From positions 320,001-384,000 of the forward strand of contig CAXXVO010000009.1 in NCBI GenBank assembly GCA_963422645.2: DNA of 64,000 nt. Direction: 5' to 3'. A program made the position numbers and the translations under genes. Positions 33,670-39,772 of the stretch are shown here, piece by piece. This stretch comes from Alphaproteobacteria bacterium. GTDB taxonomy: Bacteria > Pseudomonadota > Alphaproteobacteria > UBA828. How positions within the stretch are numbered: position 1 is the stretch's first letter; every line of letters begins with the position of its first letter. Below the pieces are notes generated by a model. The model saw only the letters and a program-made list of their open reading frames with translations. It was not told where the DNA came from and made no database searches.

Positions 33670-35205
33670 ATGACGAAACGAAGCGGTCGCCGCGGCGGCG
33701 GGCGCGCTGCACGGCGCGCGGAGCGGACCGGCGGCGGGATCGAGCAGCTCCGCTACATCACGCGCGACATCCCCTCGGTCGGGCTGCTGACCGAAGAGGG
33801 GCTGGCGCTGATCGAGGAGAACGCGGACACGATCCTGGAAGAGATCGGGATCGATTTTCGCGATGATCCCGAAGCGCTCGCGCTCTTCAAGGATGCCGGC
33901 GCCGACATCGACGGCGAACGGGTGCGCTTTCCGCGCGGGCTTGCGCGCCATCTGGTCTCGACCGCGCCACCCACCTTCACGCAGCTTGCACGCAATCCTG
34001 AGCGATCGGTCGAGATGGGCGGCCGCAACACGGTGTTCGCGCCAGTCTATGGCCCGCCCTTCATTTACGACATCGAGAAGGGGCGGCGCTACGCCCAGCT
34101 CGAGGATTTCCAGAACATCGTCAAGCTCGCCTACATGACGCCGGCGATGCACCACTCCGGCGGCACGGTCTGCGAGCCGGTCGACGTGCCGGTCAACAAG
34201 CGCCACCTCGACATGGTCTACGCGCACATGCGCTTTTCCGACAAGCCCTTCATGGGCTCGGTCACGCACCCCGAGCGCGCGGCGGATTCGGTGGAGTTGG
34301 CGAAAATTCTCTTCGGCGCAGACGTGGTCGATTCCCAGGCCGTCATGGTCAGCCTGATCAACGCCAACTCGCCGATGACCTTCGACGCGACCATGCTGGG
34401 TGCGCTCAAGGTCTACGCCCGCGCCAACCAGGGCCTCCTGATCACCCCCTTCATCCTCGCGGGCGCGATGGCGCCGGTCTCGGTTGCGGGCACGATGGCG
34501 CAGACCCTGGCGGAGGCCATGGCCGGCATCGCTCTCGGCCAGCTTTGCCGGCCGGGGTCGCCGGTGATCTTCGGCAGTTTCCTGAGCTCGATGTCGATGC
34601 AGAGCGGCGCGCCGACCTTCGGCACGCCGGAGGCGACGCTCGCGATCTTCGGCCTGGCGGCATTGGCCCGGCGCCTCGGCGTCCCCTTCCGCAGCGGCGG
34701 GGCGTTGACCGCGTCGAAGCTGCCCGACGCGCAGGCCGCCTACGAGAGCGCGAACACGATGCTGCCGACGGTGCTTGCCGGCGTCAACTTCGTGCTGCAC
34801 GGCGCGGGCTGGCTCGAAGGCGGGCTCGCGAGCGGCTACGAGAAGTTCATCATGGATGCCGACCAGCTCGGCATGATGCAGGTGCTGGCAAAGGGCTACG
34901 ACCTCTCGGCCAACGGCCAGGCGATGGATGCGATCCGCGAGGTCGGGCCCGGCAGCCACTATCTCGGCTGCGCCCACACCCAGGCGAACTTCGAGACCGC
35001 CTTCTACCGCTCACCGGTTGCCGACAATTCGAGCTTCGAGCAATGGCAGTCGGACGGCTCCAAGGACACGGCGCAACGGGCGCACGATCTCTACAAGTCG
35101 ATGCTGGCCTCCTACGAAGCGCCGCCCATCGACCCCGGCGTGGACGAGGCGCTCAAGGAGTTCATCGCGAAGAAGAAGGCGTCCATGCCCGACGCCTTCG
35201 CTTGA
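33670..35205 (+). CDS. Trimethylamine methyltransferase family protein (MttB/MtgB, no pyrrolysine)
   Basis: PFILAGAMAPVS, SGAPTFGTPE, SKLPDAQAAYES, HGAGWLEGG; no in-frame amber codon. Confidence 0.9.
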   Translation: MTKRSGRRGGGRAARRAERTGGGIEQLRYITRDIPSVGLLTEEGLALIEENADTILEEIGIDFRDDPEALALFKDAGADIDGERVRFPRGLARHLVSTAPPTFTQLARNPERSVEMGGRNTVFAPVYGPPFIYDIEKGRRYAQLEDFQNIVKLAYMTPAMHHSGGTVCEPVDVPVNKRHLDMVYAHMRFSDKPFMGSVTHPERAADSVELAKILFGADVVDSQAVMVSLINANSPMTFDATMLGALKVYARANQGLLITPFILAGAMAPVSVAGTMAQTLAEAMAGIALGQLCRPGSPVIFGSFLSSMSMQSGAPTFGTPEATLAIFGLAALARRLGVPFRSGGALTASKLPDAQAAYESANTMLPTVLAGVNFVLHGAGWLEGGLASGYEKFIMDADQLGMMQVLAKGYDLSANGQAMDAIREVGPGSHYLGCAHTQANFETAFYRSPVADNSSFEQWQSDGSKDTAQRAHDLYKSMLASYEAPPIDPGVDEALKEFIAKKKASMPDAFA

Positions 35206-35207
35206 GT

Positions 35208-35437
35208 TAGAGCAGTGTCCGAACGGAAAGATTCGTACCCGATCGCTGCACCTTCGCTTATTCGCATGCCTTGCGATCCGGGCTTCCCCTCCTCACCCCA
35301 GCCCTCTCCTCCCCAGGGAGGAGAGGGAGAACGGGTGGCGCTGCCACGTTCCCCCTCCGCCCTCTGGGGGGAGGGGGACAGGGGGAGGTGGGCGCGTACG
35401 GCTCCGCCGTGATCCGGTAGGGCCGAGTAGTGCTCTA
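35208..35437. repeat. TAGAGC-ended MITE-like element
   Basis: TAGAGCA at 35208 and TGCTCTA at 35431-35437; fills the gap between convergent genes. Confidence 0.5.
35286..35396 (+). repeat. CCTCACCCC/CCCTCTCC palindromic repeat, copy 1
   Basis: Imperfect reverse complement of 58032-58145; nested hairpins. Confidence 0.8.
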
Positions 35438-38372: not shown

Positions 38373-39052
38373 GGCGCTCCTGCTTCCTCGCCGGCTGCCG
38401 CCGCCCTTTCCATGAAACCCGCGAGCTCGCCGTAGCCCACATGGCGATGGACATAGCCGAGCCCCAAGCGCTCCGCCGCCTCGCGGGCCTTGGCCTCCAG
38501 AGCGTCGTCGCGGACCTGGGAGATGTAGACGCAGTTCGTGTAGTTGCCGAAGTAGTCGTCGCGCAGCTCGGGCCAGCGGTCCAGCCCCAGGCCTTCGATG
38601 ATCAGCCGGTCGAAGTGGCGCACCATGTAATCGGTCAGGAAGAACTGGGTGGGATCGTCGTCGGTGATGGCGGCGAAGGCCTCCTGGCCGGTATAGAAGG
38701 CGTAGCAGTGCGGCCCCTCGATGCGCTCCACGCCTTCCTCCTCGATCACCTTGTCGAGCAGGCCGCCGGTGCCGCAATCGCCGTAGGCCACGAAGATTGC
38801 GCGATAGTCCGCCCTCTTCGCCCGGATCTTCGCGCGCACCGCCTCGGGGATCAGGTGCGGGCGGTTGTGCAGCTTGGCCGGCAGGCAGGTGATGTCGAGG
38901 TGATCGAAAGCGTTGGCCGCGCGGAAATCGACGATCTCGCGGGCGAGCGCGCCGCAGGCGATGACCAGCGCCCGGGCCGGGCCGGCGGACGCGAACGCGG
39001 CTTCGTCGTCGACCGAGAGGTCGGTGTGCTCAGGCGTCGCGGCTTCTACCAT
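38369..39052 (-). CDS. DUF1638 protein
   Basis: IACGALARE, CLPAKLHN.P, YGDCGTGG, GPHCY, YFGNY. Confidence 0.85.
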   Translation of the reverse strand: MVEAATPEHTDLSVDDEAAFASAGPARALVIACGALAREIVDFRAANAFDHLDITCLPAKLHNRPHLIPEAVRAKIRAKRADYRAIFVAYGDCGTGGLLDKVIEEEGVERIEGPHCYAFYTGQEAFAAITDDDPTQFFLTDYMVRHFDRLIIEGLGLDRWPELRDDYFGNYTNCVYISQVRDDALEAKAREAAERLGLGYVHRHVGYGELAGFMERAAAAGEEAGAP

Positions 39053-39064
39053 TGCGTGCTGCCC

Positions 39065-39772
39065 TCAAGCCGCGCCTGCGGTGGCGCGCAGGTTGTGGCG
39101 GCGCTTCATCAGCTCCTGGGCCGTCTCCACCGTGATTGCGGCGTCGGAGCAATAGGCGTCCGCGCCCACCGCCGTCGCGAACTCCTGGTTCAACGGCGCG
39201 CCGCCCACCATCACCACGTAGTCGTCGCGGATGCCCTTCTCCTTCATCGTGTCGATCACGACCTTCATGTAGGGCATCGTCGTGGTGAGCAGCGCCGACA
39301 TGCCGAGGATGTCGGGCTCGTGCTCCTCAAGCGCAGCCAGGTAGTTCTCCACCGGGTTGTTGATGCCGAGGTCGATCACCTCGAAGCCGGCGCCCTCCAT
39401 CATCATGGTGACGAGGTTCTTGCCGATGTCGTGGATGTCGCCCTTGACCGTGCCGATCACCATCTTGCCCGCGCGCGGCGCCCCGGTCTCGGCCAGCAGC
39501 GGGCGGAGGATGAACATGCCGCCCTTCATGGCGTTGGCGGACTTGAGCACCTCGGGCACGAAGAGGATGCCGTCGCGAAAATCGATGCCGACGATGCGCA
39601 TGCCCTCGACCAGCGCGTCGGTCAGGATCGTGTAAGGCGTCCAGCCGCGCCCCAGCAGGATGTTCACGCCCTCCTCGATCTCCTCCCTGAGTCCGTCGTA
39701 GAGGTCGTCGTGCATCTGCTCGACGAGATCGGCGTCGCTCAGCTCGCTGAGAATGATTTCGTCGTCCGACAT
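39065..39772 (-). CDS. Stand-alone corrinoid (B12-binding) protein
   Basis: Cap domain FVPEVL..A.AM; GTVKGDIHDIGKNL (DxHxxG); SALLTTT; GGAP. Confidence 0.92.
   Translation of the reverse strand: MSDDEIILSELSDADLVEQMHDDLYDGLREEIEEGVNILLGRGWTPYTILTDALVEGMRIVGIDFRDGILFVPEVLKSANAMKGGMFILRPLLAETGAPRAGKMVIGTVKGDIHDIGKNLVTMMMEGAGFEVIDLGINNPVENYLAALEEHEPDILGMSALLTTTMPYMKVVIDTMKEKGIRDDYVVMVGGAPLNQEFATAVGADAYCSDAAITVETAQELMKRRHNLRATAGAA

Follow-up and report, generated by a model that had tools for sequence, protein, structure and literature searches.

The analysed stretch, here called the window, comprises 64,000 nucleotides of an alphaproteobacterial contig (GCA_963422645.2, CAXXVO010000009.1) with a GC content of ~67%; the source genome is 99.6% complete and 8.5% contaminated. 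It contains a gene cluster with the following genes and features.

33670..35205, + strand: MttB-family (PF06253), mtgB-like methyltransferase, 511 aa, identified by ORF and Pfam; substrate a candidate only
33670..33729, + strand: N-terminal Arg/Gly-rich tail of MttB, aa 1-20, seen in the sequence and conserved in orthologs
35435..37441, - strand: RACo/RamA-like ATP-dependent corrinoid reactivase, 668 aa, identified by Pfam
35438..35482, - strand: C-terminal Arg-rich tail of RACo, last 15 aa, seen in the sequence and conserved in orthologs
37446..38372, - strand: mtgD, methyl-THF:corrinoid methyltransferase (PF00809), 308 aa, identified by Pfam and by NF005719 above cut-off
37449..37520, - strand: C-terminal Arg-rich tail of MtgD, last 24 aa, seen in the sequence and conserved in orthologs
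38369..39052, - strand: DUF1638 (PF07796) protein, 227 aa, identified by Pfam, without Arg tail, used as internal control
39065..39772, - strand: mtgC, corrinoid (B12) carrier with cap and Rossmann domains, 235 aa, net charge -20
39668..39772, - strand: acidic N-terminal extension of MtgC with the initial cap helices, aa 1-35, proposed as the surface on which the tails would land, based on charge, alignment columns and predicted helices
39989..41044, - strand: GlxA/GbdR-like AraC regulator, upstream context (NF052371, 382 bits, below the cut-off of 480)

The MttB frame is free of internal stops, and its product matched 4YYC (phmmer, E 2e-232), which we take to be an S. meliloti entry, and 2QNE (E 1e-129), presumably D. 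hafniense MtgB; the genome holds a single full MttB copy besides a 35-aa fragment. RACo is composed of Fer2, linker, middle and ASKHA domains and matched 3ZYY with E 1e-88. The ATG of mtgD overlaps the stop codon of the DUF1638 gene, and alignments of MtgD orthologs begin at residue 1. MtgC is a stand-alone PF02607 plus PF02310 protein that is 79 to 86% identical to rhizobial and roseobacter orthologs (82 to 83% to those of Sinorhizobium) and stays below the thresholds set for NF047995/6, the MtgC models of anaerobes. The AraC regulator probably starts at the ATG near 41005.

The same families in the same arrangement are described for the MtgBCDE/RamA/DUF1638 systems of Ruegeria pomeroyi, Phaeobacter inhibens and Sinorhizobium meliloti in the main text of PMC12478193 and in parts of PMC5764234. 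With an MtgC-clade carrier, MtgD, MttB, a RamA-like activase and DUF1638 all present, the locus is, judged by sequence, the published MtgBCD/RamA/DUF1638 system (aerobic glycine-betaine demethylase plus split methionine synthase). MtgE/Bmt belongs to the systems of these species, and bmt is also part of the annotated Sinorhizobium locus, whereas the window's genome yielded no ortholog of MtgE/Bmt: three MtgE queries gave only matches of 26 to 33% identity, and the PF02574 matches were distant and without tails. The locus is therefore classed as MtgBCD, and its MtgCDE arm stays putative here. Glycine betaine as the substrate and methyl transfer at this locus are likewise putative, the adjoining GbdR-like regulator scoring below its cut-off.

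Three proteins of the cluster carry Arg-rich termini. MttB starts with MTKRSGRRGGGRAARRAER (net charge +6 in the first 25 aa), RACo ends in GRRRNRRRRQS (+6 in the last 25 aa), and the pterin-binding methyltransferase MtgD ends in GRRGRREGRRRRREG followed by AAVSA (+6). The original prediction had singled out these three peptides together with the acidic start of the corrinoid protein; all four were found in place, and Pfam confirmed the identities of the proteins. As background we used the 3567 high-scoring genes of the same genome, called with a purpose-built codon model. At least 6 Arg per 10-residue window within the last 25 aa were reached by 14 of them, including RACo and the pterin methyltransferase, and at least 5 Arg per 10-residue window within the first 30 aa by 32, a level that MttB attains. 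In the second corrinoid system of the genome the N-terminal extension is of another, partly acidic kind, the pterin methyltransferase has a basic end (RAWRKSRRKAK) and RACo lacks a tail, so that the split into tailed and tail-less systems is not perfectly binary.

Orthologs were assigned to in-clade and outgroup sets by locus, independent of the tail, and a tail was scored when at least 4 Arg fell within a 12-aa window of the last 25 aa. With client outgroups that are small (10 to 19 proteins each) and mostly relatives of one query, tails were present in 108 of 108 in-clade MtgD proteins (93 reaching 5 Arg) versus 2 of 12 in the outgroup (none reaching 5), in 75/76 versus 0/19 RACo proteins, and in 42/47 versus 0/10 homocysteine methyltransferases. 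The five tail-less homocysteine methyltransferases are distant paralogs with 25 to 30% identity to MtgE, and MtgE/Bmt itself was tailed in 42 of 42 cases. This fourth client had not been named in the original prediction, which nevertheless implied its tail, as well as the lack of tails on DUF1638, MetF and PF13769 proteins. For MttB, the total Arg of the N-terminal extension was scored, as its two Arg clusters are undercounted by a 12-residue window (58/79); at least 5 Arg were found in 161 of 170 proteins from MtgC-type loci or genomes versus 0 of 11 in the outgroup. The nine misses comprised six start-codon miscalls with tails visible, one weak tail and two others. Individual exceptions were an MttB with only 3 Arg (locus L276), a tail-less RACo with no tail encoded in the DNA past its stop codon (L138) and a RACo with a weak, subterminal tail (L133).

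Only 3 of 97 DUF1638 control orthologs reached 4 Arg in 12 aa, none reached 5, and the tail metric was satisfied by 4 of 112 MtgC C-termini. At least 5 Arg in the last 20 aa were present in 92 to 95% of the MtgD, RACo and MtgE clusters and in 0 to 3% of MetF, MetF2-like and PF13769 proteins. The client families thus have tails, and the co-located MetF, MetV-like, DUF1638 and PF13769 proteins do not. Tails are N-terminal on MttB and C-terminal on MtgD, MtgE/Bmt and RACo, begin where solved homologs end or start, and are kept as an Arg/Gly-rich composition with no fixed motif in common; the Arg:Lys ratio in MtgD tails is 730:30. Relatives of an Acidimicrobiia-like MtgD carried a tail in 118 of 119 cases, and the tail was also present in Betaproteobacteria (Azoarcus) and in Acidimicrobiia-labelled MtgD.

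In a quick MttB tree of 82 rows (all 11 outgroup proteins, 70 random in-group proteins and the window's protein, N-terminal extensions excluded), the tailed MttBs split into two groups, and the starred branches force at least two changes. The MttB tail history is either two gains, or one gain and one loss. Up to 14 MttB-like matches were found per genome. A class-wide comparison of 301 genomes gave no clean contrast for MttB in genomes without the system, with MttB in 65, MtgD in 60 and RACo in 68 genomes, nearly the same set.

It is hardly credible that the tails merely reflect a high GC content, an overlap with ribosome-binding sites or, for MttB, a twin-arginine export signal. Codons for Arg, Gly and Ala are GC-rich, as is the window, and MttB opens with S-G-R-R, but tails persist at 33 to 50% GC and are absent from outgroup loci at 44 to 70% GC. 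Below a locus GC of 0.50, all 13 MtgD and all 10 RACo proteins were tailed, the lowest GC being 0.33 with a GC3 of 0.21 to 0.23, and tail strength showed no significant correlation with GC (Spearman rho -0.15 to 0.18). Absence from close orthologs and an explanation by GC bias had been set beforehand as refuting outcomes, and the idea survived both tests, the tails being present and not a GC effect. In low-GC genomes the Arg codons of the tails move to AGA/CGT, and AGG accounts for only 4 to 7% of tail Arg codons. GC bias and ribosome-binding-site overlap were rejected because of this low-GC persistence, codon shift and low AGG usage; in addition, the RACo tail lies at the operon end facing a convergent gene, and three of the four client tails are C-terminal. 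A Tat motif is defined by an N-terminal RR followed by a hydrophobic h-region, and the maximum of 1.43 in MttB aa 1-50 (12-residue Kyte-Doolittle window) is weak for such a region. A Tat signal peptide was therefore rejected for MttB, the remaining tails being C-terminal.

The presumed partner of the tails, MtgC, has a net charge of -9 in its first 25 aa and of -13 in its first 35 aa. Among 94 MtgC proteins the charge of aa 1-35 averaged -13.4 (range -17 to -9), compared to -1.4 (-5 to +3) in 71 outgroup proteins, and the remainder of the protein differed little in charge from the outgroup. Positions D23, E31, D64 and D67 were acidic in 73 of 73 aligned MtgC sequences versus 1 to 16% of 74 outgroup proteins. 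Helices are predicted at residues 13-25 and 29-41 of the cap domain with a pLDDT of about 96-97, only residues 1-3 fall below 50, and Pfam B12-binding_2 begins at residue 17; in this model the acidic segment would consist mostly of folded cap helices and not of a free tail. The strongly acidic N-terminus of the original prediction was thus borne out as to its charge, but it is largely a folded cap. Corrinoid proteins without the acidic extension had tail-less partners at equally high GC (RACo 0/19, MttB 0/11), and the suggested co-occurrence of basic tails with the acidic corrinoid N-terminus holds for the locus-defined clade versus the outgroup. The acidic cap arose in one clade, which makes this co-occurrence a single evolutionary contrast for the carrier, and any other trait shared by the clade could be the target of the tails. 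A complex prediction with MtgC (alignment of 73) and the MtgD tail (aa 277-308) scored 0.00 in two runs in which the controls were unfolded and the partner fold was uncertain, so that it weighs on neither side of the binding question.

The reading we favour, and hold to be probable, is that the tails are fuzzy, flexible electrostatic tethers that attach the client enzymes to MtgC at its acidic N-terminal extension and cap. That the tails bind the carrier, or a condensate, is something we infer from sequence. A client tail would capture the MtgC cap, and the cobalamin domain would thereby become more concentrated around the client active site. As all clients would use one MtgC surface, they would compete for it and replace one another, and an incoming MttB paralog would become a client once it had gained a tail. 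More speculatively, holding the cap could also help to uncover cobalamin, and a quicker hand-off could keep cob(I)alamin safe in oxic cells. Pterin and homocysteine modules are TIM barrels. MttB is a TIM barrel as well (PMC9842639), so that the original wording of three unrelated folds converging on a basic peptide was overstated; the clients are separate families, not all separate folds. According to published genetics, MtgC is the carrier common to betaine demethylation and methionine synthesis. Bmt of P. inhibens alone makes methionine in vitro (PMC12366255), and its tail therefore need not mean docking. A wider version, in which an Arg/Gly tail at either terminus would be a portable address tag recruiting any enzyme to the clade-specific acidic MtgC cap, is put forward tentatively.

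Tethering to MtgC has to be weighed against other roles of the tails. They might bind another shared polyanion (RNA, polyphosphate or anionic membrane lipid) or drive a condensate containing acidic MtgC, which would bring about co-localisation instead of pairwise docking. An Arg/Gly-rich, motif-free composition with strong preference for Arg over Lys would suit this role; RGG-type nucleic-acid-binding and phase-separating segments are composed in this way. MttB proteins are moreover oligomeric (PMC9842639, PMC13080624), which would provide multivalency. We nevertheless consider this explanation unlikely: the tails are limited to proteins handling the corrinoid carrier and are missing from the MetF, MetV-like, DUF1638 and PF13769 proteins encoded in the same operons, although a compartment for the pathway would perhaps recruit these too, a generic polyanion leaves the clade-specific invariant cap acids unexplained, and MtgC has a single acidic patch with no evident repeat.

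Quite unlikely is a function unrelated to assembly, in which the tails would be a tag for degradation or turnover or a handle for solubility or chaperones, while the acidic cap would serve, for example, the folded client cores. Many acidic positions do lie on folded helices able to bind client cores, Arg runs are also found at the end of a few unrelated proteins in the genome (14/3567 at the above threshold), and the physical tie between tail and cap is itself deduced from sequence; what this leaves unexplained is why exactly the carrier's clients, from four families and at either terminus, gained tails jointly with the acidic extension. It is very unlikely that the tails dock on a different acidic protein of the system acting as an adaptor, be it DUF1638 or PF13769, a small "virulence factor" protein, although DUF1638 is needed alongside the system and co-distributed with RamA (PMC5764234), its core tends to be acidic (average charge -8.3, n=104), and a PF13769-RACo fusion occurs on a Terrarubrum plasmid. 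DUF1638 cores vary in charge between -17 and +3, but every MtgC segment has a charge of -9 or below; PF13769 proteins reach merely -1 to -4, and one PF13769 query had no match in the window's genome, where the tails remain.

The covered parts of the MtgBCDE papers leave aside the question of how, in aerobic bacteria of sea and soil, so many methyltransferases can be served by a single small corrinoid protein, and the solved anaerobic complexes have cognate folded interfaces. Should the tails recruit clients to MtgC, they would provide a simple, testable mechanism for a pathway with high expression throughout the ocean (PMC12478193); they would also mark further clients at the sequence level and supply a rule for designing multi-component cobamide biocatalysis. 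If they were address tags, four enzyme families with up to 14 MttB-like matches per genome would time-share one carrier, possibly in a multivalent assembly, tails would predict new clients, and foreign methyltransferases could be plugged into the carrier. Recruitment by tails would also imply that terminal tags or truncations may disturb function in recombinant work with these proteins.

The words "arginine" and "tail" are absent from the main text of PMC12478193, as is "arginine-rich" from the available part of PMC5764234; our literature search found no description of Arg tails, and a general search of the docking literature gave nothing relevant. The carriers of MttB-MttC (7XCN), MtaB-MtaC (2I2X) and D. 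hafniense MtgB have the same fold as MtgC of the window. In MttB-MttC the cap domain touches the client, and MtaC docks on MtaB via an N-terminal extension (PMC9842639). These methanogen and anaerobe complexes rely on a folded, cognate-specific interface, whereas the aerobic MtgC would serve many clients that have a composition-biased tail in common; the acidic extension is missing from MttC-type carriers and Arg tails from their clients, whereas the aerobic system has both.

The homocysteine, pterin, cap and cobalamin modules of MetH are homologous to MtgE, MtgD and MtgC, but in MetH they are covalently joined and there is no MttB or RACo part, whereas the proteins of the present locus are encoded by separate ORFs, which sets it apart from a fused MetH. 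The original proposal that tails replace covalent linkers can stand only as an analogy: the main text of PMC12478193 argues against an origin of MtgC by MetH splitting, and other split systems work without tails or linkers. A search for natural MtgC fusions listed 120 of 4025 matches, mostly single-record chimeras. The five candidates inspected among those listed were two apparent MtgC-MtgD fusions, rejected as single-record read-throughs in which the frame is lost, two fusions of a URO-D-family protein with a corrinoid protein and one MetH-like fusion.

Charge-based hubs are familiar from acidic acyl-carrier protein and the basic patches of its partners, the acidic tip of SSB, the nucleosome acidic patch with its arginine anchors, and PKS docking domains. 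As is proposed for MtgC, these hubs present one charged surface to many unrelated partners, with no homology claimed. Unlike theirs, the partners of MtgC carry appended terminal Arg/Gly tails, whose binding is proposed here. The MtgBCD system is known; the novelty is this putative docking by Arg tails.

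The window holds two convergent units, mttB on the plus strand and the corrinoid/DUF1638/pterin methyltransferase/RACo set on the minus strand, with a GbdR-like regulator upstream of the latter:

33670–35205, plus strand, MttB-family gene
35435–37441, minus strand, RACo/RamA-like activase
37446–38372, minus strand, pterin-binding methyltransferase (MtgD)
38369–39052, minus strand, DUF1638
39065–39772, minus strand, corrinoid protein (MtgC)

The locus is an MtgBCD system with RamA and DUF1638, as described in the available text of Mausz et al. 2025 (PMC12478193) and Price et al. 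2018 (PMC5764234), according to which methionine synthesis and betaine demethylation both require MtgC and MtgD. No MtgE/Bmt ortholog was found in the window's genome (best match 27% over most of the length), and as its corrinoid matches were two only, no fused MetH was found there either. The genome (G000) does carry a tandem pair of homocysteine S-methyltransferase genes, distantly related to MtgE (loci L083–L085, contig C8, 39241–45800), the first of which is broken by a methylase-like and two transposase-like open frames. These enzymes, which we take to resemble B12-independent BHMT, may be the methionine source where neither MtgE nor MetH was found. Between mttB and RACo, which converge, lies a repeated intergenic element (35286–35418). 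The whole 230-bp gap gave 19 blastn hits in the genome including itself, mostly to this element, the best with 80–88% identity. Just upstream of mttB lies a minus-strand open frame (32634–33455) with no Pfam match, which is preceded by a signal-like hydrophobic stretch and ends in a Cys-Pro-Ala-Gly-Cys segment.

According to the original prediction, Arg-rich tails on three partners of the acidic corrinoid protein are a possible electrostatic docking code; the four peptides it quoted were all present in the window sequence. As background we used 3567 high-scoring genes from a self-trained gene caller, which is approximate because the full set of 4391 calls spans 75% of the bases. At least six Arg per 10-residue window of the last 25 residues occurred in 14 of these genes, including the locus RACo and MtgD, and the N-terminal Arg level of MttB was reached by 32. 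Also among the 14 are two neighbors on contig C8 (796026–799301), a small protein with a long acidic run and then five Arg at its end and a membrane protein with a terminal eight-Arg run, presumably YajC- and SecF-like proteins.

We collected 80 loci around MtgC relatives and added loci from a class sample of 301 genomes, 60 of them with MtgD, from a phylum sample of 301 genomes, and from further regions. When at least four Arg per 12-residue window within the last 25 residues were required, a C-terminal tail was present in 108/108 MtgD and 75/76 RACo proteins; the tail-less RACo of locus L138 is a true exception, confirmed at the DNA level. The tail was likewise kept in Azoarcus MtgD and RACo and in 118/119 MtgD relatives of an Acidimicrobiia-like query. 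Many sequences in all these counts are closely related and so not independent. At a locus GC below 0.50, 13/13 MtgD and 10/10 RACo proteins had tails, and no significant correlation between GC and tail strength was found. MtgD tails stay Arg (730 Arg versus 30 Lys). The tail Arg codons track genome usage, with AGA and CGT up at low GC and AGG at 4–7%, which points to selection at the protein level. The original doubts, absence from orthologs and GC bias, were thus dispelled, with tails kept down to a locus GC of 0.33 (GC3 ~0.22), and we regard a compositional artefact as highly improbable.

Clustering of open frames from loci of at least 5 kb revealed a further tailed family, 95% of whose members have at least five Arg in the last 20 residues. 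It matches annotated S. meliloti bmt at 52–96% identity and is, judged by sequence, MtgE, a fourth client of the carrier. The C-terminal tail test was passed by 42/42 MtgE orthologs and failed by five distant homocysteine methyltransferases in the set. At least five Arg preceded the first conserved helix in 161/170 MttB proteins from MtgC-type loci or genomes, a set that takes in paralogs at 23–47% identity to the window's protein. The three predicted partners, MttB, the pterin methyltransferase, and RACo, are therefore indeed tailed, but with MtgE the families number four. C-terminal tails were absent from DUF1638 (3/97 reach four Arg, 0/97 five) and, in the clustered loci, from MetF, a MetF2-like family, and the PF13769 protein. 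A PF13769-type "virulence factor" protein, a usual neighbor of mtgD/metF, is fused to the RACo N terminus on a Terrarubrum flagellatum plasmid (L270:11236–13518). The fusion protein has 760 aa and retains the Arg tail, and it suggests a role for the PF13769 protein alongside the activase instead of one in virulence. Extra mtgC copies adjoin an ABC substrate-binding protein gene on rhizobial plasmids (L268:9971–10669 and L269:9974–10663); one of these loci also has a tailed MttB, with mtgD and RACo absent within 10 kb.

Corrinoid proteins at 43–50% identity start mostly ~12 residues later, without the acidic segment. The outgroup comprised 80 loci from metagenomes, centered on one protein of this kind, and paralogous alphaproteobacterial systems. 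As predicted, tails went together with the acidic carrier: at an outgroup GC of 0.44–0.70, tails were found in 0/19 RACo, 0/10 homocysteine methyltransferases, and 0/11 MttB, save for 2/12 pterin methyltransferases at the lower threshold (0/12 at five Arg). By alignment, solved homologs agree with the tail-less outgroup: residue 3 of 9YCE aligns to residue 34 of the window's MttB, MeTr ends at MtgD residue 279–280, and 3ZYY ends 9 residues past RACo residue 634. When MttB cores with extensions removed were placed in a quick maximum-likelihood tree, the tailed proteins formed two groups, one sitting among tail-less proteins, and the starred branches cannot be explained by fewer than two changes.

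On the carrier side, MtgC residues 1–35 had a mean net charge of −13.4 (−17 to −9, n = 94) versus −1.4 in the outgroup (−5 to +3, n = 71), whereas residues 36–97 (−0.9 versus −3.4) and 98–end (−5.3 versus −3.2) differed little. Positions 4–16 form an extension absent in 74/74 outgroup rows. An acidic residue stands at D23, E31, D64, and D67 in 73/73 in-clade rows versus 1–16% of the outgroup. As AlphaFold2 predicted confident cap helices at 13–25 and 29–41 and a fold matching the MttC and MetH cap-cobalamin units, the candidate landing site for the tails would combine a short acidic tip with a folded acidic surface. Past the last helix, MtgC orthologs share a basic C-terminal motif (K/R-R/K-H-N; window 39065–39110) that might bend back onto the acidic cap.

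The simplest and most likely account of the observed tail distribution is a fuzzy electrostatic tether between client tails and MtgC, whose binding and kinetic consequences we infer. The tail of each client would catch the MtgC tip and cap, the bound MtgC would be held close to the client active site, and the next client would displace the previous one. That the tails instead serve a non-protein polyanion or a condensate is unlikely, and an unrelated role, e.g., as a turnover tag, is somewhat less probable still. Docking on an adaptor such as DUF1638 is quite doubtful, as the core charge of DUF1638 spans −17 to +3.

Several observations count against the tether. The carrier-side contrast behind it comes from a single clade, and in one case RACo has no tail. 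The genome's second corrinoid system (L001:5827–10688; contig C9, ~105800–110700), encoding a URO-D-family methyltransferase, a corrinoid protein, RACo, and a pterin methyltransferase, is intermediate: its corrinoid protein has a different, partly acidic N-terminal extension, its pterin methyltransferase a basic end, and its RACo an extra Cys-rich N-terminal part and no tail. Similar RACo/pterin/corrinoid sets occur at loci L253–L257. Finally, Bmt is able to act alone in vitro (PMC12366255, available text).

Two points of the original prediction need correction. The pterin and homocysteine modules are presumably TIM barrels. As MttB is a TIM barrel too (PMC9842639, available text), the assumption of unrelated folds was not borne out for all clients. 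The proposed replacement of covalent linkers holds as an analogy of function, since MtgC reportedly has its origin elsewhere than in a split MetH, and some split systems do without tails.

A literature search, with subscription journals and supplements outside its reach, turned up no account of the tails. In the available text, the term "arginine" was absent from PMC12478193, PMC12366255, and bioRxiv 10.64898/2025.12.19.695462, "arginine-rich" was absent from PMC5764234, and 4YYC was unmentioned in PMC13080624. As the Pfam MTTB model starts within the MttB tail (residue 8), this stretch is already part of a family model, without a comment that we could find. The system is known, but its tails are real and conserved and seem not to have been described before; a docking role can be tested by clear and cheap experiments. 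Among known systems, the cap in MttB-MttC touches the client and moves away from the cofactor, and the N-terminal extension of MtaC serves for docking, according to the available text of PMC9842639.
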